46,623 nucleotides of DNA from Gemmatimonadales bacterium (GCA_036276435.1 DASUOW010000152.1:1-46623), one strand, 5' to 3'. Positions 4,745 to 40,497 are shown, numbered from the stretch's first letter. Notes: a model not told the origin generated them from the letters alone. A program made the numbers and translations.

Positions 4745-4758
4745 GACCGCCTGTGGGT

Positions 4759-4797
4759 GCGGGTAGGGATGCTTCTGAAAAGTAATCCCGTACCCGC
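4759..4797 (-). other. Stem-loop between the GNAT stop and the desaturase start
   Basis: GCGGGTAGGGAT (4759..4770) pairs with ATCCCGTACCCGC (4785..4797) with a 1-nt bulge and a 14-nt loop. It could be the GNAT terminator or a desaturase leader element. Confidence 0.4.
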
Positions 4798-4813
4798 TCA
4801 GGTCGATTGCCGG

Positions 4814-5239: not shown

Positions 5240-5507
5240 CTACTCCTCCAGCCTGTCGGACCGGCAGGGCCTTCTCACCGGTCTACACGAACGCAGCATA
5301 TCAAGTGCCACCCGGACCGGGTGACGCGACGCCGGGTACCAGTGGCCTTGCGACTTTCTATGTCGTGATGGGATAGCAAGTTGCCTGTCCGCCCGGCGCG
5401 CGACAAGTTCAAGGTGCACGGTGCCCGGCGTGTCGTCCTGTCGCAATCGGGGCGTATCGTCGGAAAGTGCGTCCGCAAAAGGCTACGACTGCGTCGGAGT
5501 AATCAAG

Positions 5508-13656: not shown

Positions 13657-14091
13657 TCAGGGCCAGCGCGCGAGCATCTGGCGCAGTTCGTCGCGGTGGT
13701 TGCTCTCGTCGGCGAGCAGGGTGTCGAAGTCGGCCGCCAGGCCGATCTCGCCCGCCGCCTCCGCCATGCCGCGACGCTTGATGTAGCGCTGGATGGTCTC
13801 GAGCTCGGCCTCGAGGGCCGCCTGCACCATCTCCTTGGCGTCGTGCACCACCTTCACCGGGGCGGGCTCCGCCGCGGGCACGCCGCCGAGCGCCGAGATC
13901 TTGTCGGCCAGCAGCTGGGCATGGCCAAGCTCCTCGGGGATCTCCGAGGCGAAGAAGGCCCGCAGCTCCTGCCGATACGGGCCCTGCACCATGCTGGCGT
14001 AGAGCCGGTACATGATCACGGCCTGGAACTCGCCGCGCAGGTCCTCGTTGAGCCCGTCGATCAGCGCCTTCATTGCGTCGCTCACGGTCAA
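13657..14091 (-). CDS. Ferritin-like (bacterioferritin/Dps superfamily) protein
   Basis: The ORF is 144 aa. It has a four-helix di-iron-like pattern (LNEDLRGEFQAVIMY...EELGHAQLL...ALEAELETIQRY...ADESNHRDEL). The start is uncertain: TTG 14091, GTG 14085 or ATG 14073. An AAGGAG lies at 14102..14097. Confidence 0.75.
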   Translation of the reverse strand: MTVSDAMKALIDGLNEDLRGEFQAVIMYRLYASMVQGPYRQELRAFFASEIPEELGHAQLLADKISALGGVPAAEPAPVKVVHDAKEMVQAALEAELETIQRYIKRRGMAEAAGEIGLAADFDTLLADESNHRDELRQMLARWP

Positions 14092-14148: not shown

Positions 14149-14901
14149 CTACCCCACATGCCCGGCACGGATGCCGAGCGGCCAGCGAACGATGCGCCGG
14201 GACCCCGTGTCGCGCCAGCGAGGCGCCAAGCGCTCCGCGAGCTCGGCGAGCGGGTCGCGGCCCTCCGCCACCCGCCCGCGCGCCACCGCCGACCAGGTAC
14301 CGACGTAGCCCAGCAATTCGTCACGGGACATGACGGCGTGCATCTCCATCGCGGGAACCGCGATGGGCTCGAAGGGGAAGGGCAGCGTGGTGAAGCCCGC
14401 GTCGACCAGCACCCGCTCGGGCGGCCAGTAGCGACCGATCCGCTCCTCGTAGAACCACGTCAGGATCGGGTCGAGATCGTCGCCGGCCTGCATGGCGCCG
14501 TAGCACCAGAGCGCGACGGCGCCCCGCGGCGCCAGCACCCGGCGCGCCTCGGCGTAGAACGCGTCGAGGTCGAACCAGTGGGCCGCCTGTGCCGCGGTGA
14601 CGAGATCCACGGCGCCGTCGGCCAGCCCCGACTGCGACTCGCGGCCCTCGACGTAGGTGACGCGCTCATGCCGCGTGGCGTGCGCCAACTGTCCCGCGCT
14701 CGGGTCGGTGGCGCGCACCTGCTCGAAGTGCTCGGCGAGGCCGATCGCCGCCTGCCCGGAGCCGGTGCCGCAGTCCCAGGCGAGCCGGCGGCCCGGCGCC
14801 ACGGAGGCGAGGAAGGCGAACAGCTCGGCGGGATAGTGCGGCCGGAAGCGCGCGTAGTCCGCGGCCTGCTCCGAGAAGTGGTCGGCGAAGCCCGGGCTCA
14901 C
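14149..14901 (-). CDS. Class I SAM-dependent methyltransferase (Methyltransf_11-like)
   Basis: The GTG at 14901 overlaps the permease stop (GTGA), giving 250 aa. LAWDCGTGSGQAAIGLAEHF is the SAM motif I. DLVTAAQAAHWFD and LAPRGAVALWCY are post-I motifs. Confidence 0.82.
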   Translation of the reverse strand: MSPGFADHFSEQAADYARFRPHYPAELFAFLASVAPGRRLAWDCGTGSGQAAIGLAEHFEQVRATDPSAGQLAHATRHERVTYVEGRESQSGLADGAVDLVTAAQAAHWFDLDAFYAEARRVLAPRGAVALWCYGAMQAGDDLDPILTWFYEERIGRYWPPERVLVDAGFTTLPFPFEPIAVPAMEMHAVMSRDELLGYVGTWSAVARGRVAEGRDPLAELAERLAPRWRDTGSRRIVRWPLGIRAGHVG

Positions 14902-15689
14902 GGTGCCCCGGCTGCACGCGCCGGCCGGGGACGACCGATGAGGCGCGCCTCCGGATCGAACAGCAGCGTGGCGAGCAGGAAGGCCACCACGGTCCACGCC
15001 ACGAGCACCACCACGTTCAGGCCGAACCCGTACTCCGCCGGCTGTCCGAACGCGCGCCGTACCAGCTCCACCATGTGCGTCACGGGGTTGACCGACGCGA
15101 AGAGGGCGAGCGGCCGCGGCAGCTGCTCGGCCGGGTAGAGCGCCCCGCTCAGGAACAGGAGCGGGAAGAGGAGCACGTTGATGATCCCGGCGAAGTTCTC
15201 CACCGAGCGCAGCCGCGACGCCACCAGCAGCCCCAGCACCGCGGAGACCGCCGAGGCCACCACGAGCGTGCCGACGGCGAGCAGCAGCTGCGGCAGCGTC
15301 GGGCTCGTGATGAACGGCGCCGCGGCGAGCACCACGAGCGCCTGCGTCGTGCCCATCACCGTCGCCGAGAGCGTGCGCCCGAACAGCACGGCACCCGGGC
15401 CGGCGGGACTCGCGAGCATGAGCCGCAGCATGCCGAACTCGCGATCGTAGACGGTGGACACCGCCGTCAAGGCGCCGCCGAAGAGGCACGCCATGACCAG
15501 CACGCCCGGGTACACGAACTCCCGGTAGGGCATCCCCGACGGCAGTTGCGCGATGGCGTTGTAGCCCGTGGCCACGAGCAGGAGCCACACGAATGGGCGC
15601 GCGATGCCGCCGAGGAGGCGGCTGGGCTGCCGCCGCACGCGACGCAGGTCGCGCGTGGTGATGGCGAGGGCGGTGGTGAGCGCGCTCAT
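14898..15689 (-). CDS. ABC-2 type transporter permease
   Basis: 263 aa. The ATG at 15689 overlaps the ATPase stop (ATGA). It has six hydrophobic segments, and the N-terminal TTRDLRRVRRQPSRLLGGIARPFVWLL is typical of DrrB/ABC-2 exporters. Confidence 0.85.
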   Translation of the reverse strand: MSALTTALAITTRDLRRVRRQPSRLLGGIARPFVWLLLVATGYNAIAQLPSGMPYREFVYPGVLVMACLFGGALTAVSTVYDREFGMLRLMLASPAGPGAVLFGRTLSATVMGTTQALVVLAAAPFITSPTLPQLLLAVGTLVVASAVSAVLGLLVASRLRSVENFAGIINVLLFPLLFLSGALYPAEQLPRPLALFASVNPVTHMVELVRRAFGQPAEYGFGLNVVVLVAWTVVAFLLATLLFDPEARLIGRPRPARAAGAP

Positions 15690-16609
15690 GCCGTCACCCG
15701 CGCGCCGGTGCGCGCGAAGTAGGCGTCCTCGAGCGTGGGCGCGCGGAGCACCGAGCGGGTGAGGCCCGTGGCGCCGGCGGCGCGCTCGAGAACGTGCTCC
15801 TTGCGGCCGTCCAGCCCGATGCGCACCGCGCCCTCGCTCGGCACGACGAGCTTCGCGAGCCCCTCACCCTGCAGCGCCGCCGCGAACGCCGCGGCGCCCG
15901 GCCCATCCACCTCGAGCACCGCGTCACCGAACGGTGCCAGCAGCTCGCGCGGCGTGCCGTCGGCCACCACCCGGCCCTTGGCCAGCATGAGCACGCGGTC
16001 GGCGGGTTCGGCCTCGTCGAGGTAGTGGGTCGAGAAGAGCACCGCCGTGCCGCGCGCGCGCCGCTCGGTGTCGAGGAATCCCCACAGCCGCTCGCGGTGC
16101 TCGGGGTCGAGGCCCACGGTGGGCTCGTCGAGGATGAGCAGCGCGGGCGCGTGCAGCGTGGCGCGCGCGATGTCGGCGAGGCGGCGCCAGCCGCCCGACA
16201 GCTCGCGCGCGAGCTGGCCGGCGCGGGGCCCGAGCCCCATGCGTTCCAGCGCACCGTCGACGGCGGCGCGCGTGTCGCGGCGCGCCACCCCGGCCATGCC
16301 GGCGGCGAACTCGAGATTCTCGCGGACGGTGAGGAACGGGTCGACGGTGGGCTCCTGGAACACGAGCCCGAGGCGGCAGCGCGCGGCGCGACGCGCGCCC
16401 GTCACGTCGTGCCCGAAGATGCGCGCACTGCCGCGGCTGGGCGAAAGCAGCGTGGCCAGCAGCAGCATCGCGGTGGTCTTGCCGGCACCGTTGGGCCCGA
16501 GGAGGCCGACCAGCGCGCCGGAGGGCACGACGAGGTCCAGCGCCTCGAGGGCGCGGACCTCGCCGTAGTCGCGGCCGAGGCCGGCGGCCTCGATCGCGGG
16601 GGTGCTCAC
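15686..16609 (-). CDS. ABC transporter ATP-binding protein (DrrA/ABC-2 exporter type)
   Basis: The GTG at 16609 overlaps the pqqE stop (GTGA), giving 307 aa. It has Walker A GPNGAGKTT, the signature LSGGWRR and Walker B LLILDEPTVGLD, plus a C-terminal extension of about 80 aa as in DrrA-like ATPases. Confidence 0.88.
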   Translation of the reverse strand: MSTPAIEAAGLGRDYGEVRALEALDLVVPSGALVGLLGPNGAGKTTAMLLLATLLSPSRGSARIFGHDVTGARRAARCRLGLVFQEPTVDPFLTVRENLEFAAGMAGVARRDTRAAVDGALERMGLGPRAGQLARELSGGWRRLADIARATLHAPALLILDEPTVGLDPEHRERLWGFLDTERRARGTAVLFSTHYLDEAEPADRVLMLAKGRVVADGTPRELLAPFGDAVLEVDGPGAAAFAAALQGEGLAKLVVPSEGAVRIGLDGRKEHVLERAAGATGLTRSVLRAPTLEDAYFARTGARVTA

Positions 16610-17697
16610 GCCGTCTGCGGCTCCGGGGCGATCCTGCGGTAGGTGAACGGCACCTCGCGGCCCGCCTGGCCCAGCGCATCGCTGATCAGGTGATGATGCG
16701 GGCTCAGGTGGCAGATGGGGTCGGCGTTGGCCGCGTCGCCGGTGAGCGCGAACGCCTGGCAGCGGCAGCCGCCGAAGTCGACGCACTTCCGCTCGCAGCT
16801 CACGCACGGCTCCTTCATCCACGCGTCGCCGCGGAACGCGGTGAACAGCGGCGACTCCTGCCAGATCCACTCGAGCGAATGGTCCTTCACGTTCGGCATG
16901 GGGAGCGTGGTGATGTTCGTGGCGCCGTGGCACGGCAGCGCCTTCCCGTCCGGCGCCATCACCACGTACACCTTGCCCCAGCCGCCGTAGCACGGCTTGG
17001 GGTACTTCTCGTAGTAGTCCGGCAGCACGAACACCATCTGCATCCGGCCACGATACTTCTGCCGCAGCCGCTCGGCCACCTCGAAGGCGCGGTCCACCTG
17101 TTCGGGCGAGGGCATGAGCGCCTCGCGGTTCACGAGCCCCCAGCCGTAGTACTGCGTGTTGGCCAGCTCGACGCGGTCGGCGCCCAGGTCGGCGGCGAGC
17201 TCGATGATCTGCTCGATGCGGTCGAGGTTCTCGCGGTGCAGCACCACGTTCACCGTGAAGGCGAAGTCCAGCTCCTTCACCAGCGCCGCGGCGGCCCGCT
17301 TCTGCTTCACCGAGCGCACGCCGGCGATCCGCTCGGCGTTGTCGTCGTCGGCGTCCTGCAGCGAGATCTGGATGTGCTCGAGCCCCGCTTCCTTGAAGCG
17401 CTCGGCGCGCTGGCGGGTCAGGCCGAGGCCCGAGGTCACGAGGGTGGTGTAGAAGCCCTCCCTTCGCGCGTGCTCCGCGATCTCCTCGCAGTCCTTCCGC
17501 ACGAGCGGCTCGCCGCCCGAGAGGCCGAGCTGCAGCACGCCGAGCCGGCGCGCCTCGGTGAGCACGCGCTTCCAGGTGTCGGTGTCGAGCTCCTGGTTCG
17601 CCCGGATGAGGTCGAGCGGATTGGAGCAGTAGGGGCAGTGCAGCGGGCAGCGATGCGTCAGCTCCGCCAGCAGCGTGGTCGGTCGGTCAGTGGTCAC
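16606..17697 (-). CDS. pqqE: PqqA peptide cyclase, radical SAM/SPASM enzyme PqqE
   Basis: 363 aa with a GTG start. It has the CPLHCPYC radical-SAM cluster motif and a C-terminal SPASM cysteine cluster (CYGGWG...CHG...CVSCERKCVDFGGCRCQA). The start overlaps pqqD by 11 nt. Confidence 0.93.
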   Translation of the reverse strand: MTTDRPTTLLAELTHRCPLHCPYCSNPLDLIRANQELDTDTWKRVLTEARRLGVLQLGLSGGEPLVRKDCEEIAEHARREGFYTTLVTSGLGLTRQRAERFKEAGLEHIQISLQDADDDNAERIAGVRSVKQKRAAAALVKELDFAFTVNVVLHRENLDRIEQIIELAADLGADRVELANTQYYGWGLVNREALMPSPEQVDRAFEVAERLRQKYRGRMQMVFVLPDYYEKYPKPCYGGWGKVYVVMAPDGKALPCHGATNITTLPMPNVKDHSLEWIWQESPLFTAFRGDAWMKEPCVSCERKCVDFGGCRCQAFALTGDAANADPICHLSPHHHLISDALGQAGREVPFTYRRIAPEPQTA

Positions 17698-17977
17698 GGA
17701 TCAGCTCCCGCGCGACGAGCCCGTCGAGGTACTCCGTCACGTCCTTGAGGATCTCCTCGACGCTCGCGCTGTCCTCGGCGCCGTAGCGCGACTTGAGCGC
17801 CGCGGCGATGTCGGCAAGCGTGCGACGGCCGTCGAGCAGCTTGAGGATCTCGGCGCCCGTCTCGTTCAGCAGCACCGCGCCCTCGGGATACAGCAGCACG
17901 GGGCGGTTGCGCACGGCGTCGAACTCGACGCGGGCGAAGCGCCAGAGCGAGGGGGTCGAGGTGGGGATGAGCGCCAT
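17687..17977 (-). CDS. pqqD: PQQ biosynthesis peptide chaperone PqqD
   Basis: 96 aa. PVLLYPEGAVLLNETGAEILKLLDGRRTLADI is the PqqD/RRE pattern. It lies between pqqC and pqqE. Confidence 0.9.
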   Translation of the reverse strand: MALIPTSTPSLWRFARVEFDAVRNRPVLLYPEGAVLLNETGAEILKLLDGRRTLADIAAALKSRYGAEDSASVEEILKDVTEYLDGLVARELIRDH

Positions 17978-17983
17978 CGTGCG

Positions 17984-18736
<753 letters not shown>

Positions 18737-18738
18737 GG

Positions 18739-19308
18739 TCACTGTCCGGAGGGGCCCACGTAGTCGGGCACGCCGTTGGGGTAGTCGTTGGTGGCGCCGC
18801 CGGCCTTCACGGTGCGCGCCACGCGATCGGCGAAGCTGCGGGTGCCGATGCGCGTCATCGCCACGGGCTCGCCCTTGAGCTCGGTGGAGTCGTCGAGGAC
18901 GATCTCGCCGGTGGGCACGTGGATGAGCTGGCCCGTCAGCAGCCAGATGAGGTTGCTGGTCTTGCTCACCTTCAGCATCACCACCCAGGCGGCGCCGGAC
19001 CGGCGCGCCGCCTCGCGGGCGCAGGCCACGGTGACGCGGCACGCGGCATCGGCCGGCACGACGACCGCCTGTGCGCCGAGGCGATCCCGCAGGCGGTCGT
19101 TCATCGTCGCCGTCGCCGTCGTCGCCGCCACGGTATCGCTGGCCTCGAGCACGTTGGCCTGCTCGTTGTAGAGCGCCGTGGGGAGCAGTGCCACCTTCGC
19201 GTCGGGCGCCGCGAGGGGTGGCCGGGCGGGACTGACGGCCACGCCCTGCGCCGAGGCGAGGGCAGGTGATGCGAGCAGGCCGAGCAGCACGGCGGTCGAA
19301 CGGATCAT
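18739..19308 (-). CDS. Secreted protein of unknown function embedded between pqqB and pqqC (189 aa)
   Basis: ATG at 19308 with a GAGGAG Shine-Dalgarno. The signal peptide is MIRSTAVLLGLLASPALASA/QG. The stop lies 2 nt before the pqqC ATG and the start lies 20 nt after the pqqB stop. It has two Cys (ACRVTVAC). I could not assign a family with confidence. Confidence 0.7.
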   Translation of the reverse strand: MIRSTAVLLGLLASPALASAQGVAVSPARPPLAAPDAKVALLPTALYNEQANVLEASDTVAATTATATMNDRLRDRLGAQAVVVPADAACRVTVACAREAARRSGAAWVVMLKVSKTSNLIWLLTGQLIHVPTGEIVLDDSTELKGEPVAMTRIGTRSFADRVARTVKAGGATNDYPNGVPDYVGPSGQ

Positions 19309-19328
19309 CGTTTCCGGCTCCTCGCGTC

Positions 19329-20237
19329 TCAGACGTCGAACGTCATGCCGTCCATCCCGACCTCGATGCCCGCCTGCGCCACGGCGGCGCGCTCGGGCGA
19401 GTCCTCGAGCAGGATGGGATTGGTGTTGTTGATGTGAACGTACACGCGGCGGGGCGTCGCGAGCCCGGCGAGCTGCGCGAGGCTGCCGCCCTCGCCGGAG
19501 AGCGGCAGGTGGTCGATTTCGCGCGCGCGCTTAGTGCCCACGCCGAGCGCGATCATCTCGTCATCGGTCCAGAAGGTGCCGTCGAAGAGCAGCAGGTCGG
19601 CGGCGCCCAGGCGCGCGAGGAGCCGGGCATCGAGGCCGCCGCAGGCCGGTGCATAGGCCAGCGTGCCGCCGGTGCGACGATCGTGCACGAAGAGGCCCAC
19701 GGTATGACCGGGCTCGTCCCGCGATGCGAAGCGCGGCGGCCCCGCCGGCACCACGAACGGTTCCACCGTGATGCCGCTTGGCCCTTCGCCCGGGTGGGCC
19801 AGCTCCGTGGGCATGCCCACCGAGAGGGCGCAGGTGCGCACCTCGGCGAACGCGCGCGTCACGGGCAGGAGGCGCGTGTCGTGGTCGAGGGTGTGCAGCA
19901 CGGGCGGCGTGGCGTACAGCTGGAGCGAGCGGCCCTCGCGCAGCAGCACGAGGCCCAGCGAGTGGTCGAGCTCGGCGTCGGTCAGGACCACGCCGGCCAC
20001 GGCCACGTGCCGGTTCCCCTCGGGCTCCGCCACCGGCAGTCGCGCCAGCTGCTCGCGCACGTCGGGCGAGGCATTGAGCAGGAACCAGCGGTTCCCGTCC
20101 GCGCTCACCGCCACCGACGACTGCGTGCGCGGCCGCGCCCGGCCGGGCTCGCGACGCGCGACCCGGCAGGTGGGGCACCAGCAGTTCCACTGCGGGAAGC
20201 CGCCGCCGGCGGCCGTTCCCAGGAGGATGACCCTCAT
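19329..20237 (-). CDS. pqqB: PQQ biosynthesis protein PqqB (metallo-beta-lactamase fold)
   Basis: 302 aa. MRVILLGTAAGGGFPQWNCWCPTC...LTDAELDH...VHINNTNPIL is the typical PqqB signature. Confidence 0.92.
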   Translation of the reverse strand: MRVILLGTAAGGGFPQWNCWCPTCRVARREPGRARPRTQSSVAVSADGNRWFLLNASPDVREQLARLPVAEPEGNRHVAVAGVVLTDAELDHSLGLVLLREGRSLQLYATPPVLHTLDHDTRLLPVTRAFAEVRTCALSVGMPTELAHPGEGPSGITVEPFVVPAGPPRFASRDEPGHTVGLFVHDRRTGGTLAYAPACGGLDARLLARLGAADLLLFDGTFWTDDEMIALGVGTKRAREIDHLPLSGEGGSLAQLAGLATPRRVYVHINNTNPILLEDSPERAAVAQAGIEVGMDGMTFDV

Positions 20238-20240
20238 CGG

Positions 20241-20267
20241 AATAGAAAAGGCCCGCTTGCGCGAGCC
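20241..20267 (-). terminator. Hairpin plus U-tract between pqqA and pqqB (attenuator or RNA-stabilising stem-loop)
   Basis: On the minus strand, GGCUCGC-GCAA-GCGGGCC is a 7-bp stem (one G-U pair) with a GNRA loop at 20267..20250. It is followed by UUUUCUAUU (20249..20241). The U-tract ends 3 nt before the pqqB ATG. Confidence 0.6.
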
Positions 20268-20293
20268 CCTTCACCCTTCATCACCTGAATCGC

Positions 20294-20368
20294 TTACAGG
20301 GTCGCGACGTAGGCGGTGACTTCCATCGTGACGGCGACGATCTCGGCTTCGGGCTTGGTCCAGCGCAT
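20294..20368 (-). CDS. pqqA: PQQ precursor peptide PqqA (24 aa)
   Basis: It is too short for the ORF track. My translation is ATG CGC TGG ACC AAG CCC GAA GCC GAG ATC GTC GCC GVC... = MRWTKPEAEIVAVTMEVTAYVATL*, containing the conserved W-x-K-P and E-x-x-x-Y (EVTAY) cross-link residues. A GGAGG lies 6 nt upstream of the ATG. It sits directly upstream of pqqB. Confidence 0.85.
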   Translation of the reverse strand: MRWTKPEAEIVAVTMEVTAYVATL

Positions 20369-20408
20369 TGTTGCCTCCAGAGGGTTGGTGGTCTGACGCC
20401 CTCTCTTT

Positions 20409-20425
20409 AGGCAGAGTTCATGCCG
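20409..20425 (-). promoter_or_regulatory. Candidate sigma-54 (-24/-12) promoter for the pqq operon
   Basis: The minus strand reads cGGCATGAACTCTGCc, against the consensus TGGCACG-N4-TTGCW. GG and GC have the correct 12-nt register. It lies about 40 nt upstream of the pqqA ATG and directly downstream of a sigma-54 activator gene. Confidence 0.55.
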
Positions 20426-20507
20426 TTTTCAGAGGGCCACTTGGTCAGGAGGCAAAACCGCTTTCGACAACGACTTAGCGAAATGCCATCGGACGCGGGC
20501 CGATGCT

Positions 20508-20563
20508 TCACCCCACCCATTGGGTTCCTTCACCCACCCAACGTTGGGTCATCTCACCCACCG
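20508..20563 (-). promoter_or_regulatory. Three TCACCC(C)ACC direct repeats containing two ACCCA..TGGGT palindromes (candidate enhancer/UAS)
   Basis: The repeats start at 20509, 20530 and 20554, with spacing of 21 and 24 bp. The palindromes are ACCCAtTGGGT (20515..20525) and ACCCAACGTTGGGT (20536..20549, a perfect 14-mer). They lie 85-140 bp upstream of the -24 element. The last repeat overlaps the regulator's stop codon. Confidence 0.45.
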
Positions 20564-21936
20564 ATGCCGTACTTCTTGAGCCGATAGCGGAGCGTATCCC
20601 GGCTGATGCCGAGGCGCTGCGCCGCCCGGGTCTGGTTGCCGCCGCTCTGCTGCAGGGCCTGTTCGAGCATGGCGCGCTCCCATTGTCCGAGGTCCATCCC
20701 ATCGGGCGGAAGGCCGGGCACCGGAGCCGGGGCCCCGCCATCGGGCTGCATGAGCTCGTCGGGATTGTTGAGCGAGAGATGCTCGGCACCCAGCTCCGCC
20801 TCGTGGCTCCAGAGGATGGCGCGCTCCATCACGTGGCTCAGCTCGCGCACGTTGCCGGGCCACGGGTAGGCGCGCAGCAGCGCCTGCGCCTCGGCGCTGA
20901 TGCGGCGCACGTCGCGGCCGTACTTGGCGGCGTACTGCTTGAGGAAGTGCTCGGCCAGGATCAGCACGTCGTCGGCCCGTTCGCGCAGCGGCGGCAGGCG
21001 GAGCAGGATCACGGCGAGGCGGAAGAAGAGGTCCTTCCGGAACCGCTCGCCCTGCACGTCCTTCTGGAGGTCGCGGTTGGTGGCGGCCAGGATCCGCACG
21101 TCGATCTTGCGGTCCCGGATGCCGCCGACACGGCGCACCGTGCGGTCCTCGATGGCCCGCAGCAGCTTGCCCTGCAGCGCCAGCTCGATGTCGCCCACCT
21201 CGTCGAGGAAGATGAACCCGCCCTCGGCGGCCTCGAACAGCCCGAGCTTCGATTCCTTGGCGTCGGTGAAGGCGCCGCGCTCGTAGCCGAACAGCTCGGC
21301 CTCCATGAGCGTGGCGGGCAGCGCCGTGCAGTTCACGTCGATGAACGGCCGGCCGCTCCGCGGGCCCGAGGCGTGGATGGTGCGCGCCACGAGGCCCTTG
21401 CCGGTGCCCGTCTCGCCGGTGATGAGCACGGGCGGCGTCTCGTCGAGCGCCGCCACCTGGCGCGCGCGGTCGAGCACCGCGCGCATCGCCGGCGAGTCGC
21501 CGAGGATGCCGCCGAGGGACACCTCGCGGGTGGCCTGCTTGCGGTAGTACGACAGCTCCTGCCGCAGCCGCGAGTTCTCCCGGGCGCGGTCGGCGAGGAG
21601 CTTCAGCTCGTCGAGGTCGACGGGCTTCTTGATGTAGTCGAACGCCCCGAGCTTGACGGCCTCCACCGCGCCCTCGATGGAGCCGAACGCCGTCATCACC
21701 ACCACCGAGATGGTCGGGTCGAACTCCCGCACCTTCCTCAGCAGCTCGATGCCGTTCATGCCCGGCAGCCGCACGTCGGTGAACACCACGTCGGGCTTGA
21801 GCCGCTCGAGCATCTCGAGCGCCGACTCGGCGTCGCCCGCCACCTCCGTCTCGTAGCCCGCCTCGGTGAGGAAGACCTTCACCACCCGGGCGAGGGTGCG
21901 CTCGTCGTCGACGACGAGAATGGTGCCGTTGCTCAT
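20554..21936 (-). CDS. Sigma-54-dependent response regulator (NtrC family: REC, AAA+ and Fis-type HTH domains)
   Basis: I chose the ATG at 21936 within over-extended ORF 20554..23481 (460 aa). It has a REC domain (ILVVDDE...DVRLPGMNG), Walker A GETGTGKG, the sigma-54 contact loop GAFTDA (GAFTGA variant), and a C-terminal HTH (NQTRAAQRLGISRDTLRYRLKKYG). There is an ATGA overlap with the kinase stop. Confidence 0.92.
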   Translation of the reverse strand: MSNGTILVVDDERTLARVVKVFLTEAGYETEVAGDAESALEMLERLKPDVVFTDVRLPGMNGIELLRKVREFDPTISVVVMTAFGSIEGAVEAVKLGAFDYIKKPVDLDELKLLADRARENSRLRQELSYYRKQATREVSLGGILGDSPAMRAVLDRARQVAALDETPPVLITGETGTGKGLVARTIHASGPRSGRPFIDVNCTALPATLMEAELFGYERGAFTDAKESKLGLFEAAEGGFIFLDEVGDIELALQGKLLRAIEDRTVRRVGGIRDRKIDVRILAATNRDLQKDVQGERFRKDLFFRLAVILLRLPPLRERADDVLILAEHFLKQYAAKYGRDVRRISAEAQALLRAYPWPGNVRELSHVMERAILWSHEAELGAEHLSLNNPDELMQPDGGAPAPVPGLPPDGMDLGQWERAMLEQALQQSGGNQTRAAQRLGISRDTLRYRLKKYGIGG

Positions 21937-23456
21937 GCCACCCCTGCCGGCTCGCGAGCCGGGGCTGCGGGAAGGACGAGCCGCACCGTGGTGCCCTCGC
22001 CCGGGGCGCTCGTGATCTCGAGCCGTCCGCCGTGCTGCTCCACGAACCGCCGCGCGATGGCGAGCCCGAGCCCGGTGCCCTCGCTGCGCGTGGTGAAGAA
22101 CGGCTCGCACACGTTCGGCAGCACGTCGGCGGGGATGCCGCGGCCCGTGTCGCGGATGTCGAGCAGGACGCGATCCGCCGCCGCGGCGCCCTCGAGCCGG
22201 AGCCGGCCGCCGCCGGGCATGGCGTCGAGCGCGTTGGAGACGATCTCCAGGATCGCCGTCTCCACCTTCATCGGGTCGACGTGCACGTCGGGCAGCGCCT
22301 CGGGGATCGCCACCTCGAGCGCGATGCCGCGATCGGCCAGCAGGCTGCGCATCGGGGCGATGGCCCCGTCGACCAGCGCGCCGAGCCGCTCGCGCATCTG
22401 GTGCGTGGGGGCGGGCCGCGAGAAGGTGAGCAGGTGCGCGATGCGCTTGTCGAGGCGGTCCACTTCCTCGATGATCGCCTGCAGCGACTCGCGCGCGGCC
22501 GGCGAATCGGGGTGCCGGAGGGCCAGCTGCGCCGAGGCGCGCAGGCTCGCCAGCGGGTTGCGGAGGCCGTGCGCCACCGCCGCCGCCATCTGGCCCACCG
22601 AGGCGAGCTTCTCCGACTCCACGAGCTGGGCCTGCGTACGCTCGAGCTGCGCGATCTTCGCCGCAAGCTCCGCGTTGAGCGACTCGCGCGCCGCACTCGA
22701 CTCGCGCAGCCGCGCCGTCATGTCCCCGAAGGAGCGCGCGAGGTCGCCGATCTCGTCGCGCGCGTCGGTGCGGATGGGATGGTCGAGGTTGCCGGCGCCC
22801 ACCACGGCCATCGCGCTCCGCAGGTCGTTGATGGGCCGCACGAGGCTCCGCGCGAACGCCGCCGCGAGCAGCAGCCCGGCCGCGATCGCGGCGGCCATGA
22901 TGGTGAAGAGCAGGCGCCGCTCGCGATCGACGATCTCCTCCACGCGCACGAAGGCGCGCTGCACGGTGGCGATGCGCGCCTGGCGGTAGATCTCGTGATT
23001 GAGCGTGGTCAGCTCGGGGAAGAGCCGCGTCTTGAGCTCGCGCTGCGCGAGGCGGTAGCCCTCGTCGCGCCGGCGGGCGGTGGTGAGCACCATGACGCTG
23101 TCGGTGACGGAGTCGATCTGGGCGCGCAGCCGACGCACCTGCTCGGCATAGCGCCGCTCCTCCGGGCGCAGGTCGGCCTCCCAGCGCTCGATCCAGTAGG
23201 TCACCACCTGCCGGTTGGTCTCCAGCTCGCGCGGCACGTCCTCCTCGAACCCGCTGAGCGCCCGCCAGACGATCTCCCCCTGCGCCTGCAGCGCCGACTC
23301 CACCTCGGCGTAGGTCCGCGAGCGCCCGAGCCCCTGGCCCAGGTTCTCGAGCGCCTCGCGTTCCAGCCGGTTGCTGCGATAGGCGAGCGCCGCCACGAGG
23401 AGCAGCGGGATCGCCATCAGCGCGAAGGCGAGTCCGAGGCGGCGTTGGAAGGTCAT
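21933..23456 (-). CDS. Sensor histidine kinase with an extracytoplasmic sensor, HAMP, HisKA and HATPase domains
   Basis: 507 aa. It has two TM segments flanking a domain of about 170 aa, a HAMP domain (INDLRSAMAVVGAGNLDHPI...EIGDLARSFGDM), an H-box (AAVAHGLRNPL) and N/G boxes (IVSNALDAM, DTGRGIP, GTGLGLAI). Confidence 0.9.
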   Translation of the reverse strand: MTFQRRLGLAFALMAIPLLLVAALAYRSNRLEREALENLGQGLGRSRTYAEVESALQAQGEIVWRALSGFEEDVPRELETNRQVVTYWIERWEADLRPEERRYAEQVRRLRAQIDSVTDSVMVLTTARRRDEGYRLAQRELKTRLFPELTTLNHEIYRQARIATVQRAFVRVEEIVDRERRLLFTIMAAAIAAGLLLAAAFARSLVRPINDLRSAMAVVGAGNLDHPIRTDARDEIGDLARSFGDMTARLRESSAARESLNAELAAKIAQLERTQAQLVESEKLASVGQMAAAVAHGLRNPLASLRASAQLALRHPDSPAARESLQAIIEEVDRLDKRIAHLLTFSRPAPTHQMRERLGALVDGAIAPMRSLLADRGIALEVAIPEALPDVHVDPMKVETAILEIVSNALDAMPGGGRLRLEGAAAADRVLLDIRDTGRGIPADVLPNVCEPFFTTRSEGTGLGLAIARRFVEQHGGRLEITSAPGEGTTVRLVLPAAPAREPAGVA

Positions 23457-23589
23457 GAAGGCAAGATACAGCGTCCGGCAAACCTTTTCATCGCTTGTGG
23501 ATACAATTTCTGAGACGCGGCGGGTGGAAAGTCTTGCCCCGCCGAGTCTGAAGGTCTACTATAGGAGAGCCCAGCCGGGAGGCCCTCTG

Positions 23590-24702
23590 ATGGCGGATGC
23601 GTTTCGAAGCGCCGACGACTTCGACGAACAGGCCCACCAGCTGTACAACGAAGCTCGCTACGACGAAGCCCTCGCCCTGCTGCGCGAGGGTCTCTCCCTC
23701 TACCCCAACTCCGTCGAACTGCACATCGGCTCCGCCTACGCCTGGATGGCGATGGAGGAGTTCGCCTGGTCGCGCCGCAGCTTCGACACCGCGCTGACGC
23801 TCGATCCCGATCACGAGGACGCGCTCGCCGGCATGGGCGAGGTGCTCCTGAAGCTCGGCGATCGCACCGGGGCGATGCGCTGCTTCGAGCGCATCGTGGC
23901 GCTGGGGTTCCAGGACGACCTCGAGCTCATGCTGCAGCTCGGCCGTGCGAGCTTCCGCGAGGGCCTGCTGGCGCAGGCGCACCGCTACTTCGAGCTGGCC
24001 GTGGGCGCGCATCCCGACTCGCCCGACGCGGCGGCGTGCCTGGGGTACGCCGCGCACCGGCTGGGCAACGATGCCGGCGCACTCTTCTGGATCCGGCGCG
24101 CCCTCGAGATCGAGCCGCACTACGCCGAGGCGCGCATCTACCTCGCCAACATGCTGTACGACCGGGGCGAGACCGAGGCGGCGCTGCGCCACCTCGAGCG
24201 CACCGAGCCGGACGATCACTACGACGAGCTGGGCCTGTGGCGCTGCGTCGAGCTCAAGAAGGTGGTCTATCGCCTGCCCGACGAGGATCCCGAGCTCGCG
24301 CCGTGGTACCAGCGCCTGGGCGAGGTGGCCGGCGAGCCCGACCCGCTCGAGATGCTCCTCAACGAGATCGAGGCGCAGCTGCCCGACGGCACGGTGCGCA
24401 ACCCGCACCAGCTCGAGCTCTTCGGCACGCTGCTCACCGAGCTGCACGCCATGCAGAAGCGGCCCGGCGACCATCACTTCATCGCGACGCTCGCCGGCCA
24501 GACGTTCCGCGGCACCTGGGAGGAGATCCTTCACCAGATGAAGGAGGCCGAGCCCGAGTATGCCGACGCCCCGATGCAGGAGTTCATGGCGAGCCTCGCC
24601 CGGCGCGGCCGCACCGAGACCGGCATCGTGATCCCCACGACGGACGCCGAGGCGTTCATCCGCGGCAGCGCCCAGGCTGGGGTGTTGCGCATCATCCAGT
24701 AG
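23590..24702 (+). CDS. TPR-repeat protein with an uncharacterised C-terminal domain
   Basis: I chose the ATG at 23590 (GGGAGG lies upstream), giving 370 aa. The N-terminal ~210 aa contain several TPR-like repeats (YNEARYDEALALLREGLSLYPNS..., AEARIYLANMLYDRGETEAALRHLE). I did not recognise the C-terminal ~150 aa. Confidence 0.75.
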   Translation: MADAFRSADDFDEQAHQLYNEARYDEALALLREGLSLYPNSVELHIGSAYAWMAMEEFAWSRRSFDTALTLDPDHEDALAGMGEVLLKLGDRTGAMRCFERIVALGFQDDLELMLQLGRASFREGLLAQAHRYFELAVGAHPDSPDAAACLGYAAHRLGNDAGALFWIRRALEIEPHYAEARIYLANMLYDRGETEAALRHLERTEPDDHYDELGLWRCVELKKVVYRLPDEDPELAPWYQRLGEVAGEPDPLEMLLNEIEAQLPDGTVRNPHQLELFGTLLTELHAMQKRPGDHHFIATLAGQTFRGTWEEILHQMKEAEPEYADAPMQEFMASLARRGRTETGIVIPTTDAEAFIRGSAQAGVLRIIQ

Positions 24703-24958: not shown

Positions 24959-27586
24959 ATGACCCTCTCCTCGACGCTCGCGCCCGCCGGCCGCTGGACC
25001 GCCGGTGTCCATCGCGAGGTGCTGCCCAACGGCCTGACGCTGCTCGTGCAGCGCGACGACTCGGCACCCGCCGTGGCGGTCGTGACCCACGTGCGCGCCG
25101 GCTTCTTCGACGAGCCCGATCACTGGGTGGGCATCTCGCACGTGCTCGAGCACATGTTCTTCAAGGGGACGCCCACGCGCGGCGTCGGCGCCATCGCGCG
25201 GGAGACGAAGGCCGCCGGCGGCTACCTCAACGCCTCCACCAGCTACGACGGCACGTCGTACTTCGTGGTGCTGCCGGCGTCGCAGCTCGCCGCGGGCATC
25301 GCGGTGCAGGCCGATGCGCTCCGCCACTCGCTCATCGACGCCGGCGAGCTCAAGCGCGAGCTGCAGGTCATCATCCAGGAGGCGCGCCGCAAGCAGGACT
25401 CGCCCGACGCGGTGGCCCACGAGACGCTGTTCGAGGTGATGTTCGACCGGCACCGCATCCGCCGCTGGCGCATCGGCCGCGAGGCGGAGCTGGCCGCGTT
25501 CACCCGCGACGACGTGGCCGGCTACTACCACTCGCGCTACGTGCCGGCGCGCACCGTGGTGTCGGTGGTGGGCGCCATCGACGTCGACGAGGCCGTGGCC
25601 CTCCTCCGCCGCACCTACGGCGACTGGCCCGCGGCCGACGGCGCGGTGAACCCGAGTCCCGAGGAGCCGGCGCATCGCGGCGTGCGCGCGCGCACGCTGC
25701 GCGGCGACGTGTCGCGCGCCGAGCTGGTGCTGGGGTGGCACACCGTGCCACCGCTCCACGCCGACGCCATCGCGCTCGACATGGCGGCGGGCCTGCTCTG
25801 CTCGGGCCGGGGCGCGTGGCTCTATCGGCTGCTGCGCGAGCCCGGGGTCGTCACGGGCATCGGCGCCTCCAACTTCACGCCCACCGAGCTCGGCGTGTTC
25901 ACCATCGCCGCCGATCTCGAGCCGGCCCAGCTCGACCGTGCGCTCGAGGGCATCGCGGCGGCCGTGGCGCGGCTCGTCACCGAAGGCCCGGGCGCCGTGG
26001 AGCTCGAGCGGGCGCGCACGCTGATGCGCTCGCGCTGGGCGCGCCGCATGGAGTCGATGGAGGGCCGCGCCGCCGCCCTCGCCGCCACCGAGGCGCTCGG
26101 CGGCATCCATCTGCTCGACGAGGACTTCGAGCAGCTCGCCGCCGTGACGGCCGAGGATGTGCGCCGCGTGGCCGAGCGCTACCTGGCGCCGGACGCCGTG
26201 AACGGGGTCGTGTTCCTGCCCGAGGGCGAGGGCGAGGACCTCACGCCCGAGCGGCTCGCCGCCGCCTTCGCCACGTCGGGCCGCACCGCCATCGTGCCGC
26301 CGGTGCTGCCGGGGCTGCCGGTGACACCGGCGCGGACCGTGAGCGGGTCGCGCACCGCCGACGTGCTGCACGTGCCGCTGCCCGGCGTCGACCTGCTCGT
26401 GCGCCGCAAGGCGGGCGTGCCGTCGGTGACGCTGGGCTATTACGTGCCGCGCTACACCATCGAGGACCCGGCCCACGCGGGCCTCGGCGCGCTCACCATC
26501 CGCAGCGTGGTGCGCGGCGCGGGCACGCTCGACGCGTCGGCGCTGGCATACGCCACCGAGGGCCTGGGCGGCACGCTCTCCGCGAGCGCGTCGCTCGACT
26601 GGACGGGCCTCAGCCTGGGAGCGCTCAGCGACAACCTCGGACCCGCGGCGGTGCTGCTGCGCCTCGCGGCGCGCGAGCCCGCCCTCGCCGAGACGGACGT
26701 GCTCGCCGAGCGCGGCGTGATGGCGGAGGAGGCCCGGCAGGTGGCGGACGACATGTTCCGCTACCCGTTCCAGCTCGCCTTCGCGGCCGCGTTCGCGGAG
26801 CGCGGCTACGGCCGCTCCATCGGCGGGCTGCCCGAGACGCTCGCGACGCTGGACGTGGCGCAGGTGCGCGAGTGGCACCGCACGCGCTTCGCGCCGGCGC
26901 GCGCCACCATCGTCGCCGTCGGCGACCTGGATCCCGACCGTGCGGCCGCCGAGCTCGCCGGCATCTTCGGCGACCTGCCCGCGGCCGTCGCGGGCGAGCT
27001 GCCGCCGCCGCAGGCGCAGCGGCCCGACGCCGACGCCTGGTCGCGCGTCGTGGAGCGTGACAAGAAGCAGACGGCGTTCGCGATGGTGTTCCCGGGCCCG
27101 GGTCGCCGCGACCCGTTCCGCCACGCCGCTGACGTGTGGAGCGCCATCGCCAGCGGGCTCGGCGGCCGGCTCTTCGAGGCGCTGCGCGACAAGCGCTCGC
27201 TCGCCTACACCGTGCTGGGCAGCTCGTGGTCGCGGCGCGACGGCGGCGCGATGCTCACCTACATCGCCACCTCGCCGGAGCGCGAGGAGGAAGCGCGCGC
27301 CGCGATGCTGGTGGAGCTGCGGCGCTTCGCGGACGAACTCGTGTCGGAGGCGGAGCTGGCGCTGGGCGTGAACTACCTGGCGGGGCAGGCGGAGGTGCAC
27401 CGGCAGAGCGGTGCCGCGGTGCTGGGCGAGATCGTCGACGCGTGGATCGCGGGCGAGGGCCTGCAGGAGCTCCACGATCCGGCCGCACGGTATCGCGGCG
27501 TCACCGCCGAGATGGTGCGCGAGGTGGCGGCGCGCTACCTCACCGGGCCGCGCGCCGAGGGCGTCGTGCGGGGAGTGCGCCGCTAG
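24959..27586 (+). CDS. Double-domain M16 (pitrilysin/insulinase) family zinc peptidase (PqqL/PqqF-G-like architecture)
   Basis: 875 aa. The first half has the inverted zinc motif HVLEHMFFKGT. The second half is M16-like but lacks HxxEH. There is no obvious signal peptide. Confidence 0.85.
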   Translation: MTLSSTLAPAGRWTAGVHREVLPNGLTLLVQRDDSAPAVAVVTHVRAGFFDEPDHWVGISHVLEHMFFKGTPTRGVGAIARETKAAGGYLNASTSYDGTSYFVVLPASQLAAGIAVQADALRHSLIDAGELKRELQVIIQEARRKQDSPDAVAHETLFEVMFDRHRIRRWRIGREAELAAFTRDDVAGYYHSRYVPARTVVSVVGAIDVDEAVALLRRTYGDWPAADGAVNPSPEEPAHRGVRARTLRGDVSRAELVLGWHTVPPLHADAIALDMAAGLLCSGRGAWLYRLLREPGVVTGIGASNFTPTELGVFTIAADLEPAQLDRALEGIAAAVARLVTEGPGAVELERARTLMRSRWARRMESMEGRAAALAATEALGGIHLLDEDFEQLAAVTAEDVRRVAERYLAPDAVNGVVFLPEGEGEDLTPERLAAAFATSGRTAIVPPVLPGLPVTPARTVSGSRTADVLHVPLPGVDLLVRRKAGVPSVTLGYYVPRYTIEDPAHAGLGALTIRSVVRGAGTLDASALAYATEGLGGTLSASASLDWTGLSLGALSDNLGPAAVLLRLAAREPALAETDVLAERGVMAEEARQVADDMFRYPFQLAFAAAFAERGYGRSIGGLPETLATLDVAQVREWHRTRFAPARATIVAVGDLDPDRAAAELAGIFGDLPAAVAGELPPPQAQRPDADAWSRVVERDKKQTAFAMVFPGPGRRDPFRHAADVWSAIASGLGGRLFEALRDKRSLAYTVLGSSWSRRDGGAMLTYIATSPEREEEARAAMLVELRRFADELVSEAELALGVNYLAGQAEVHRQSGAAVLGEIVDAWIAGEGLQELHDPAARYRGVTAEMVREVAARYLTGPRAEGVVRGVRR

Positions 27587-29304
27587 CGCTTCCCGAGCGG
27601 CACCGGCTGCGGGATCGCGGCCCCGTCGTGGCGCGGGTCCGACGCGCCCGAGTGCACCCCGTGCCCATCGTCACGCACCGCCTGCCCGAAGCCGAACTCC
27701 CCGCTGCGCGGCCGCGGCACCGTCACCTCGTGCCCAAGCGGCCTCAGCGCGTCGCGGCTCGCCGCCGGCACCCGGTCCTCGACGAGCACGTCGCACCCCT
27801 CGAACGTCGGCTTGGTGAAGCGCCCCGCCTCCAGCGCCTGCTGGATCGAGAGGCCGTGGTCCACGACGTTCGACACGAACTGCGCGTGCGCCTGCGCCTG
27901 GTTCCACCCGCCCATGATCCCGAAGCCGATGCGCACGTCGCCCTTGGCCATGAAGCCGGGGATGATGGTGTGCAGCGGCCGCTTGCGCGGCGCGAGCGTG
28001 TTGGGATGTCCCGGCTCGAGCGTGAAGAGCGCGCCGCGGTTCTGCAGCATGAAGCCGGTGCCGGCCGCCACGAAGCCCGACCCGAAGCCGGCGTAGTTGC
28101 TCTGGATGAGCGAGACGATGTTGCCCTCGGCGTCGATCGTCGAGAGGTAGATGGTGTCGTGCCCCTTCATGTCGCTCACGCCGGCGAGCTGCGTCGGCTC
28201 CACCCGGCACTGTGCCCGCGCCGGATCGATGCGGCGCGCCCGCTCCGCCGTGCGCGACGGGTCGAGCAGCGTCGCCACCGGGATCTCGCCGAAGCGCGGA
28301 TCGCCCACGTAGCGCAGCATGTCGGCGTAGGCGAGCTTCTTCGCCTCGATCATGACGTGCAGGCCGCGCGGGTCGTGCAGGCCCCACTCGCCCAGGGGGT
28401 GGTGCGCCATCAGGTCGAGCATCAGCAGTGCGGCGATGCCCTGACCGTTCGGCGGCAGCTCGCTCACCGTCCAGCCGCGATAGGTCGTGGAGATCGGCGT
28501 CACCCACTCGGCCGTGAACTCGGCGAGGTCGGCGGCGATCATCGTGCCACCCGCGCCGCGCACGAGGGCCACCACGGCGTCGGCCGTCGGCCCGCGATAG
28601 AAGCCGTCACGGCCCTTCTCGGCGATGCGCCGCAGCGTGCGGGCGAGGCCCGGATTGCGGAACAGCTCGCCTTCGGCCGGTGCGCGCCCGTTCACCAGGA
28701 ACGTCGCCGCCGCGGCATCCTGCCCGCGCAGCAGCGGCTCGGAGGCGCGCCATCCGCGCGCCGTCACCTCGGCCACGGGAAAGCCCTCCTCCGCGTAGCG
28801 GATCGCCGGGGCGAGCAGCCGATCGAAGCCCAGCGCCCCGAACCGCTCGCGCAGCGCGTCCCATCCCGCCACGGCACCGGGCACGGTGATGGTCTCGACG
28901 CTGCGGAAGGGCATCGCGTCGATGCCCCGCGCCCGCATCGCCTCGGCGCTCTGCCCGGTGGCGGACCAGCCGCTGGCGTTGAGGCCGAACAGCTTGCCGG
29001 ACTTCGCCTCGTACACGATGGCGAAGAGGTCGCCGCCGATGCCGTTGCTCGTCGGCTCGACGAGGCCGAGGACGGCGTTGGCCGCGATGGCGGCGTCGAT
29101 GGCGTTGCCGCCCTGCTCGAGGATCTGCACGCCGGCGGACGAGGCGAGCGGGCTGCTGGTGGCGACGATGCCGTACCGCGTGTGCACCACCGAACGGCCC
29201 GGCACCACGCGGGCCCGGGCATCCGGCTGGGGAGCGTTCTGGGCGGTCATGGGGGCCACGAGGGCGAGAAGGGCGAGCGAGCAGGCGAGCGGCGCACGGA
29301 TCAT
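27583..29304 (-). CDS. ggt: Gamma-glutamyltranspeptidase
   Basis: 573 aa with a signal peptide (MIRAPLACSLALLALVAPMTAQ). It has the autoprocessing/nucleophile region GHDTIYLST (Thr) and GGxxQ-type C-terminal motifs (GIMGGWNQAQ). It converges on the M16 gene with a 4-nt overlap. Confidence 0.92.
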   Translation of the reverse strand: MIRAPLACSLALLALVAPMTAQNAPQPDARARVVPGRSVVHTRYGIVATSSPLASSAGVQILEQGGNAIDAAIAANAVLGLVEPTSNGIGGDLFAIVYEAKSGKLFGLNASGWSATGQSAEAMRARGIDAMPFRSVETITVPGAVAGWDALRERFGALGFDRLLAPAIRYAEEGFPVAEVTARGWRASEPLLRGQDAAAATFLVNGRAPAEGELFRNPGLARTLRRIAEKGRDGFYRGPTADAVVALVRGAGGTMIAADLAEFTAEWVTPISTTYRGWTVSELPPNGQGIAALLMLDLMAHHPLGEWGLHDPRGLHVMIEAKKLAYADMLRYVGDPRFGEIPVATLLDPSRTAERARRIDPARAQCRVEPTQLAGVSDMKGHDTIYLSTIDAEGNIVSLIQSNYAGFGSGFVAAGTGFMLQNRGALFTLEPGHPNTLAPRKRPLHTIIPGFMAKGDVRIGFGIMGGWNQAQAHAQFVSNVVDHGLSIQQALEAGRFTKPTFEGCDVLVEDRVPAASRDALRPLGHEVTVPRPRSGEFGFGQAVRDDGHGVHSGASDPRHDGAAIPQPVPLGKR

Positions 29305-29313
29305 GGGACTGGC

Positions 29314-33011: not shown

Positions 33012-33030
33012 GCCCGCGCCGCCCCACTCG

Positions 33031-39257: not shown

Positions 39258-39278
39258 GTGCTCCTGGATTCTGCGCCC

Positions 39279-40475: not shown

Positions 40476-40497
40476 GTCGCGTCCCTCCGGGCCGCGA

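Follow-up and report, generated by a model that had tools for sequence, protein, structure and literature searches.

Introduction

How does pyrroloquinoline quinone (PQQ), which is made in the cytoplasm and works in the periplasm, get across the inner membrane? Uptake systems for PQQ (PqqU and PqqT) are known, and we found no assigned export route in the searchable literature. The question is raised afresh by a 46,623-nt stretch of DNA from a Gemmatimonadales bacterium (GCA_036276435.1, DASUOW010000152.1:1-46623; the whole stretch, a contig from the metagenome-assembled genome of a soil bacterium, is called the window below), in which the PQQ biosynthesis genes pqqABCDE are joined by gene overlaps to an ATP-binding cassette (ABC) ATPase gene and an ABC-2 permease gene. 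A first-pass annotation of the window had regarded the export route of PQQ as not firmly assigned and the architecture as one not recognised from earlier descriptions. Our literature search agrees on both counts, and it returned no pqq operon with an integral ABC exporter and no description of sigma-54 control of pqqA. The same annotation had proposed a single module for PQQ biosynthesis, export and periplasmic handling under enhancer-dependent control. Here we report that pqqE lies directly upstream of the ABC pair in every evaluable locus found through the permease, and we weigh whether the pair would export PQQ.

Results

The pqq operon and its coupled ABC-2 pair

Gene and junction coordinates were read directly from the minus strand of the window, and domains were assigned by Pfam and NCBIfam profile scores. 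This reading confirmed the first-pass annotation in its eleven co-directional genes from 23456 down to 14149, in their order and identities and in all their junctions. The genes are as follows.

21933..23456, minus strand: sensor histidine kinase (Pfam HAMP, HisKA and HATPase_c; hydropathy)
20554..21936, minus strand: NtrC-type sigma-54 activator, a response regulator (Pfam Response_reg (REC), Sigma54_activat (AAA+) and HTH_8 (Fis-type helix-turn-helix))
20294..20368, minus strand: pqqA, 24-aa precursor peptide MRWTKPEAEIVAVTMEVTAYVATL with E16-x3-Y20
19329..20237, minus strand: pqqB (TIGR02108, 368 bits against a cut-off of 245)
18739..19308, minus strand: X (DUF3280, PF11684), 189 aa with a type I signal peptide (Pfam 31.5 bits against 30.1)
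17984..18736, minus strand: pqqC (TIGR02111, 315.7 bits against a cut-off of 240)
17687..17977, minus strand: pqqD (TIGR03859, 72.9 bits against a cut-off of 46)
16606..17697, minus strand: pqqE, radical SAM/SPASM (TIGR02109, 534.9 bits against a cut-off of 381)
15686..16609, minus strand: ABC ATPase, DrrA/PedB type (ABC_tran, 102.7 bits against 25)
14898..15689, minus strand: ABC-2 permease with six hydrophobic segments (ABC2_membrane, 104.4 bits against 26.9)
14149..14901, minus strand: class I S-adenosylmethionine-dependent methyltransferase (Pfam Methyltransf_11)

PqqB, PqqC, PqqD and PqqE each score above their NCBIfam equivalog cut-offs, and PqqA is 78-100% identical across all compared loci. 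In the minus-strand reading, the kinase and activator genes share an ATGA overlap, and a 185-nt spacer separates the activator gene from pqqA. pqqD and pqqE overlap by 11 nt, the stop codon of pqqE overlaps the GTG start of the ATPase gene by 4 nt (GTGA), and the ATPase/permease and permease/methyltransferase junctions are ATGA and GTGA overlaps, respectively. The Walker A, signature, Walker B and H-loop motifs are intact in the translated ATPase. The pair has the make-up of an ABC-2 exporter, namely a separate nucleotide-binding protein and an ABC2_membrane permease, both above Pfam gathering scores, and no binding-protein gene. We regard the architecture as established: a pqqABCDE operon with a coupled ABC-2 pair, under predicted sigma-54 and enhancer-binding protein (EBP) control.

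A promoter and terminator scan found no sigma-70 promoter and no terminator between pqqB and the methyltransferase gene; it flagged only two weak matches, both within the activator gene, and missed the hairpin that follows pqqA (see below). We infer that pqqB through the permease gene would be co-transcribed.

The ABC pair is found only beside pqqE

Is this junction an accident of one genome? A permease scan with one genome per species gave 27 loci at 58-83% identity, 25 from Gemmatimonadales metagenome-assembled genomes (MAGs) and 2 from Acidobacteriota MAGs, and a metagenome scan with a permease alignment added 80 further loci at 56-90% identity. All matches came from uncultured MAGs. pqqE lies directly upstream of the ATPase gene in 71/71 loci with enough upstream sequence, a count that, because the loci were selected through the permease, shows that the pair is always beside pqqE and not that each pqqE has the pair. 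The coupling of the pair to pqqE that the first-pass annotation had stressed is thus supported, and no orthologue of the pair away from pqqE was found among the 71 evaluable loci. Of these 71, 64 keep the 4-nt overlap of the pqqE stop with the ATPase start; the ATPase/permease overlap is kept in 79 of about 93, and the exceptions resemble frameshifts or small gaps. The arrangement recurs in more than 100 independent loci, which is far beyond chance.

Moreover, the pair diverges together with the pathway. Compared pair by pair across loci, the two ABC proteins track PqqB and PqqE in distance at r = 0.82-0.88, and the Pqq proteins correlate among themselves at r = 0.76-0.85. Since the distances track as tightly as those between Pqq proteins, the ABC pair has been co-inherited with the PQQ pathway for a long time.

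Conservation inside Gemmatimonadales alone is weak evidence. The flanks there are syntenic too: on the kinase side lie divergently oriented genes for a TPR protein and an M16 peptidase, and at the 3' end of the operon lie convergent genes for a 267-aa hypothetical protein, a P5C dehydrogenase and a binding protein. More importantly, the Acidobacteriota loci (L028, L030, L115 and L116/L117) have flanks unrelated to one another and to the window. In these loci the block pqqA-B-C-D-E-ATPase-permease is intact, with overlaps as in the window, and the kinase and activator genes are absent. At 66-75%, the Acidobacteriota proteins come as close to some Gemmatimonadales versions as these come to one another, a level of similarity that fits transfer of the whole seven-gene block. 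A gene of the S9 prolyl-oligopeptidase family (with PD40 repeats) abuts the block in L028 (3597-5750), L030 (10576-12846) and L116 (7610-9568). It lies upstream of pqqA in L028 and right after the permease gene in L030 and L116/L117 (7 nt in L116/L117). An S9 peptidase gene is a known accessory of pqq operons in pseudomonads. Taken together, the core of the system appears to be pqqABCDE with the ATPase and the permease, to which X and the methyltransferase would be add-ons.

The pair is akin to, and distinct from, PedBC and DrrAB

To which family does the pair belong? The best NCBIfam match of the ATPase is TIGR03864 (PedB), at 219.9 bits against a cut-off of 302.25, and TIGR01188 (DrrA) gives 207.7 bits against 312.45. 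The permease scores 137.4 bits with TIGR01247 (DrrB; cut-off 223.05) and 132.5 bits with TIGR03861 (PedC; cut-off 241.35). For the Acidobacteriota member, DrrA and DrrB outscore the Ped models. Public annotations describe the pair as generic ABC transporter subunits. The nearest relatives on plasmids of cultured bacteria are genuine PedB and PedC, with 37-39% identity in the permease and 45% in the ATPase, and their neighbours are PedA1-like and PedA2-like genes, PedF and PQQ-dependent dehydrogenases (as in L118 and L119). The window operon has no substrate-binding-protein gene and no YVTN beta-propeller gene, and the neighbours of the pair are pqqE and the methyltransferase gene. PedBC membership was rejected since both curated cut-offs failed and there are neither PedA1/PedA2-type partner genes nor an adjacent PQQ-dependent dehydrogenase gene; DrrAB membership was rejected since the TIGR01188 and TIGR01247 subfamily cut-offs both failed. 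The pair forms a separate subfamily, whose closest named kin (PedBC) are also tied to PQQ biology.

This kinship gives rise to the first alternative to PQQ export: a Ped-like pair would serve quinoprotein metallation or the handling of lanthanides or other metals, and would be co-expressed with the pathway as both are needed for active dehydrogenases. Such a role would suit an ATPase whose best model describes a PQQ-dependent alcohol dehydrogenase system and whose nearest cultured-plasmid relatives are bona fide PedB and PedC beside PQQ-dependent dehydrogenase genes. PedA1A2BC is, moreover, required for lanthanide-dependent growth in P. putida (PMC12997753). However, true PedB and PedC members pass their cut-offs at 330-338 and 402-443 bits, far above the scores of the pair, and the operon offers neither a substrate-binding protein nor a beta-propeller partner. 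The ATPase (307 aa) carries a DrrA-type C-terminal extension that PedB (250 aa) does not have, the Drr models prevail in the Acidobacteriota member, and the pair is joined to biosynthesis genes rather than to dehydrogenase genes. We therefore consider a Ped-like role unlikely.

The methyltransferase and X appear to be optional

The first-pass annotation had included the methyltransferase and the signal-peptide protein X in its single module. The methyltransferase matches PDB 4HG2 (E = 1.6e-65) and the yeast trans-aconitate methyltransferase 3G5T (E = 3.6e-10). It lies directly 3' of the permease gene in 5/81 loci and is confined to the clade of the window, and we regard it as a Tmt1/4HG2-like, lineage-restricted add-on. 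Members of the Tmt1 family (4HG2 and the yeast trans-aconitate methyltransferase) methylate carboxylates. PQQ is a tricarboxylate; that the enzyme carboxyl-methylates PQQ is pure speculation.

A second alternative is that the pair exports another product of the pathway, such as a PqqA-derived peptide, a reactive intermediate or a modified PQQ, or gives self-protection like the pumps of antibiotic clusters and of clusters for ribosomally synthesized and post-translationally modified peptides. The strict linkage to pqqE would be expected here just as for PQQ export, the homology to DrrAB-type resistance and export pumps is in keeping with it, and in the clade of the window a carboxyl-methyltransferase-like gene is coupled to the permease gene. 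That gene's rarity (5/81 loci), however, means that a modified product is not the general substrate, and we know of no by-product of the PQQ pathway that requires export. We hold this alternative, too, to be improbable.

X passes the PF11684 gathering score marginally, and its homologues carry precomputed PF11684 annotation. It has two invariant cysteines and a highly conserved core, KVSKTSNLIWL...DDSTELKGE. Its AlphaFold model (pLDDT 87.9) gave PelC, the N-terminal domain of TolB, FlgT and LpoB as top Foldseek matches, with probability 1.0 and TM-scores of 0.4-0.6. The model suggests a secreted, periplasmic scaffold fold like that of PelC and TolB-N, with no obvious cofactor site. X shares with PelC, TolB-N and LpoB the alpha/beta periplasmic scaffold fold and differs from them in not being a lipoprotein, as it has a type I signal peptide and no lipobox cysteine. 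Its sequence identity to the PelC and TolB matches is 12-24%, and it has no polysaccharide or Tol-Pal context, unlike PelC and TolB.

The neighbourhoods of X do not follow those of the pair. The first-pass annotation had asked whether X, too, goes with pqqE in related taxa; only 3 of the 54 permease-selected loci have it between pqqB and pqqC. Among 13 X homologues with visible context, those of the window, L007, the P0010 contig, L009, L010, L041, L120 and L121 (eight in all) sit between pqqB and pqqC, and five lie in unrelated contexts. L038 (1092-1115) shares 96% identity with the window in PqqB and 98% in PqqC, yet its pqqB-pqqC gap is 20 nt and holds no X; X must then have been gained or lost very recently, as this near-identical relative is without it. 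A neighbour-joining tree of X homologues was too star-like to part pqq-linked orthologues from paralogues. X as a conserved operon member is rejected on this distribution (3/54 loci; absence in L038); it recurs in pqq operons, which can do without it, and has paralogues in other places.

The same data decide on a third alternative, in which the synthesis, export and periplasmic handling of PQQ would all fall to one obligatory module that comprises X, the ABC pair and the methyltransferase. In its favour, the secreted X is tightly coupled between pqqB and pqqC in several deep lineages, and the window junctions are all overlaps or a few nucleotides. The distribution contradicts it: X is missing from 51/54 permease-selected operons and from a 96-98% identical relative, 5 of 13 sampled homologues are found in unrelated settings, only 5/81 loci have the methyltransferase, and X has a scaffold fold without an evident small-molecule site. 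An obligatory module of this kind is very unlikely. What stands of the single module proposed in the first-pass annotation is the fixed, coupled ABC pair within a block that is mobile to Acidobacteriota; X and the methyltransferase are patchy and fall outside it.

Sensor kinase, activator and the pqqA control region

How would the operon be switched on? The kinase has two transmembrane segments (aa 5-28 and 180-207) around a periplasmic domain of about 150 aa, as judged by hydropathy, and its gene lies directly upstream of the activator gene in Gemmatimonadales loci with sufficient flank. The activator scores 211 bits with Sigma54_activat and 109 and 61 bits with REC and HTH_8, respectively; it falls under every NCBIfam equivalog cut-off. 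The spacer upstream of pqqA, in which the first-pass annotation had noted repeats and a GG-N10-GC element, and the region after pqqA contain the following elements.

20521..20560, no strand assigned: two 16-bp dyads, TGGGTGAGATGACCCA and TGGGTGAAGGAACCCA (minus-strand sequences), predicted activator sites about 95-135 bp upstream of the -24 element
20410..20425, minus strand: sigma-54 type -24/-12 promoter CGGCATGAACTCTGCC (GG-N10-GC), 56 nt upstream of the pqqA ATG
20245..20272, minus strand: GC-rich hairpin in the pqqA-pqqB spacer, loop GCAA (GNRA), tail U-rich; terminator- or attenuator-like

The repeats are the dyads at 20560-20521. TGGGT/ACCCA dyads gave 3 and 2 matches in the window, where 0.08 and 0.14 were expected, with none outside 20560-20521. 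Their consensus is TGGGTGA-N2-TCACCCA, and across loci they usually come in pairs, about 115-135 bp upstream of the -24 element. A count over 45 loci (653 kb) placed 88 of 89 dyads in the 350 nt upstream of pqqA. YGGCAY-N6-TGC was found upstream of pqqA in 37/38 Gemmatimonadales loci scanned, the exception, L007, having the near-match GGGCATGAACCCTGC. The -24/-12 pattern by itself is insignificant in the window (2 matches against 1.97 expected), and the promoter argument therefore rests on position and on co-variation with the activator. In the seven loci that lack the activator, neither the -24/-12 motif nor the dyads were found. Sigma-54/two-component control of pqqA, and with it the enhancer-dependent control that the first-pass annotation had suggested, is strongly supported in silico, and the operon would on this evidence depend on sigma-54.

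The leader of pqqA in the window is about 45 nt long (20409-20369) and has no third dyad copy. In most Gemmatimonadales loci (L009, L013, L017, L019 and others), a third copy of the 16-bp dyad lies about 40 nt into a leader of about 100 nt. This copy is near-invariant and has two other hairpins on its sides, of which hairpin 1 shows some compensatory changes. We considered a riboswitch and rejected it, as the central hairpin is the near-invariant sequence of the upstream dyads, more likely a DNA site, and covariation elsewhere is modest. No Rfam match was found in the pqqA leader or the rest of the operon (this region and six related loci).

The pqqA-pqqB spacer folds at -23.7 kcal/mol (RNAfold), and an equivalent hairpin follows pqqA in 22/22 other loci examined, including those of Acidobacteriota, where the sequence differs. 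An excess of pqqA message over the full-length transcript is well known in other PQQ producers, and the conserved hairpin fits such an excess.

A second good sigma-54-type site, TGGCACTTGATATGCT, lies at 5295-5310 of the window (minus strand). Some 56-70 nt downstream of it is a gene for a GNAT acetyltransferase (4814-5239), after which comes a gene for an acyl-ACP-type fatty-acid desaturase (3770-4813).

Neighbouring genes

One further gene lies close to the operon end, where the first-pass annotation had placed it.

13657..14091, minus strand: ferritin-like/Dps-like gene (Pfam Ferritin, 83.7 bits)

It begins 57 nt past the methyltransferase gene. It adjoins the operon only in the closest relatives of the window (L008, L035, L036 and L040) and is probably outside the system.

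On the other side, the TPR protein gene occupies 23455-24702 (plus strand) and the M16 peptidase gene 24959-27586 (plus strand; 875 aa, two-unit), both syntenic in the related loci L007 and L026. The M16 peptidase matches TIGR02110 (PqqF) weakly at its N terminus (84 bits, cut-off 320) and may act as a PqqF/G-like protease. In L115, a quinohemoprotein-type PQQ-dependent dehydrogenase gene (PQQ repeats and a cytochrome c domain; 16004-17962, minus strand) lies about 6 kb downstream of the pqq-ABC block. Elsewhere in the window are genes for pyruvate formate-lyase and acetate kinase (36981-40595, minus strand), which suggest fermentative capacity of this Gemmatimonadales genome, a Kup K+ transporter (32959-34953) and a gamma-glutamyltranspeptidase (27583-29313).

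Discussion

The account that we lean toward, with moderate conviction, is that of a sigma-54-controlled pqqABCDE operon that has been extended in evolution by a coupled ABC-2 PQQ exporter. The membrane kinase would sense a periplasmic signal and phosphorylate the NtrC-type activator, which would bind the two 16-bp dyads about 95-135 bp upstream of the -24/-12 promoter and drive transcription of pqqA by sigma-54 RNA polymerase. The hairpin after pqqA would let the pqqA message exceed the read-through transcript that runs from pqqB to the permease gene. The ABC pair would then pump PQQ, or the last intermediate, from the cytoplasm to the periplasm for use by quinoproteins, and X and the Tmt1-like methyltransferase would be optional, lineage-variable passengers.

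For the pair itself, we put the chance of export of PQQ (or of the last intermediate) across the inner membrane at about even, with both direction and substrate judged from gene content and context. PQQ export is the most likely role because the pair has an exporter-type architecture and no binding-protein gene, because it was never found away from pqqE and travels with the pathway between phyla, and because PQQ must cross the membrane by a route that the searchable literature does not assign.

Several points weigh against this account. The conservation of the arrangement is partly vertical inheritance, because the flanking genes in Gemmatimonadales are syntenic as well. The sigma-54 contact loop of the activator (residues 221-226) reads GAFTDA and not the canonical GAFTGA, in the window and in all 37 orthologues, and no rpoN lies within the 46.6-kb window. 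ABC-2 exporters usually take bulky or amphipathic substrates, and PQQ is a small trianion. A Gemmatimonadota metagenome contig (L121, 1705-8839), whose lineage is represented on many contigs, carries the genes for the kinase, the activator, pqqA, pqqB, X, pqqC, pqqD and pqqE without the ABC pair, and the usual downstream neighbours come directly after pqqE. Because this lineage and most known PQQ producers do without it, the pair is not a universal or obligatory export route. Finally, PedBC, the closest named kin, has been reported to act in lanthanide uptake and not in PQQ export (PMC12997753).

The notion of an unrelated efflux system that is kept beside pqqE by regional synteny draws on the conserved Gemmatimonadales flanks (TPR, M16 peptidase, 267-aa hypothetical protein and P5C dehydrogenase) and on the one lineage without the pair, and it is the least probable of all and far less likely than a Ped-like role or the export of another product, given the 4-nt overlap kept in 64/71 loci, the lack of any orthologue away from pqqE in the 71 evaluable loci, the co-divergence with Pqq proteins, and the Acidobacteriota block, which is intact within other flanks and holds the pair between pqqE and the pqq-associated S9 peptidase gene.

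PQQ export by the pair also invites a broader proposal, which we put forward only tentatively and think rather less than probable: the pair would be a dedicated PQQ exporter, and PQQ, or its loading into quinoproteins, may also be what the broader PedBC-like clade acts on, rather than purely lanthanides. The locus also ties PedBC, transporters that are poorly understood, to PQQ biosynthesis in evolution.

If the pair does export PQQ, it is the missing step between cytoplasmic synthesis and periplasmic use. An ABC-2 pump without a binding protein, coupled to pqqE in more than 60 independent sequences from two phyla, is a specific and clonable candidate, for which E. coli, with apo-glucose dehydrogenase but no PQQ of its own, offers a test host. 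The lineage of L121 is a natural "deletion" and a useful comparison. The locus also supplies a clean predicted sigma-54/EBP regulon for PQQ synthesis, complete with kinase, activator, dyad consensus and promoter.

Comparison with known systems

The canonical pqq operons are pqqABCDEF in Klebsiella, pqqABC/DE with pqqFG in Methylorubrum, and pqqFABCDE with an S9 peptidase gene in Pseudomonas. The window shares with them the A-B-C-D-E gene order, a PqqA of 24 aa that bears E-x3-Y, a hairpin downstream of pqqA and enzymes at equivalog level, and the Acidobacteriota versions retain the adjacent S9 peptidase gene. It differs from them in the coupling of pqqE to an ABC ATPase and an ABC-2 permease, in its predicted sigma-54/EBP two-component control, in an optional secreted protein between pqqB and pqqC, and in having no clear pqqF.

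Among transporters, PedA1A2BC resembles the pair in its ABC-2 architecture, in providing the closest named homologue of the ATPase and in its genomic tie to PQQ biology. The window pair, at 38% (permease) and 45% (ATPase) identity, is linked to biosynthesis rather than dehydrogenase genes, whereas the Ped system is a reported lanthanide importer with a PedA1 binding protein and a PedA2 beta-propeller. DrrAB and NodIJ are likewise two-gene systems of ATPase and permease, with a DrrA-type C-terminal domain and comparable model scores; the window pair stays under the DrrA and DrrB cut-offs and lies among genes for cofactor biosynthesis, whereas theirs are antibiotic or Nod-factor clusters.

PqqU, a TonB-dependent importer, and PqqT, a periplasmic binding protein, handle PQQ traffic in the envelope as the pair is proposed to do, but in uptake and retention. 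PQQ export has been a matter of speculation for META1p2359 of M. extorquens (PMC7391723), a fused ABC exporter whose gene is not linked to pqq genes. None of PqqU, PqqT and META1p2359 is encoded within a pqq operon, unlike the ABC pair of the window.

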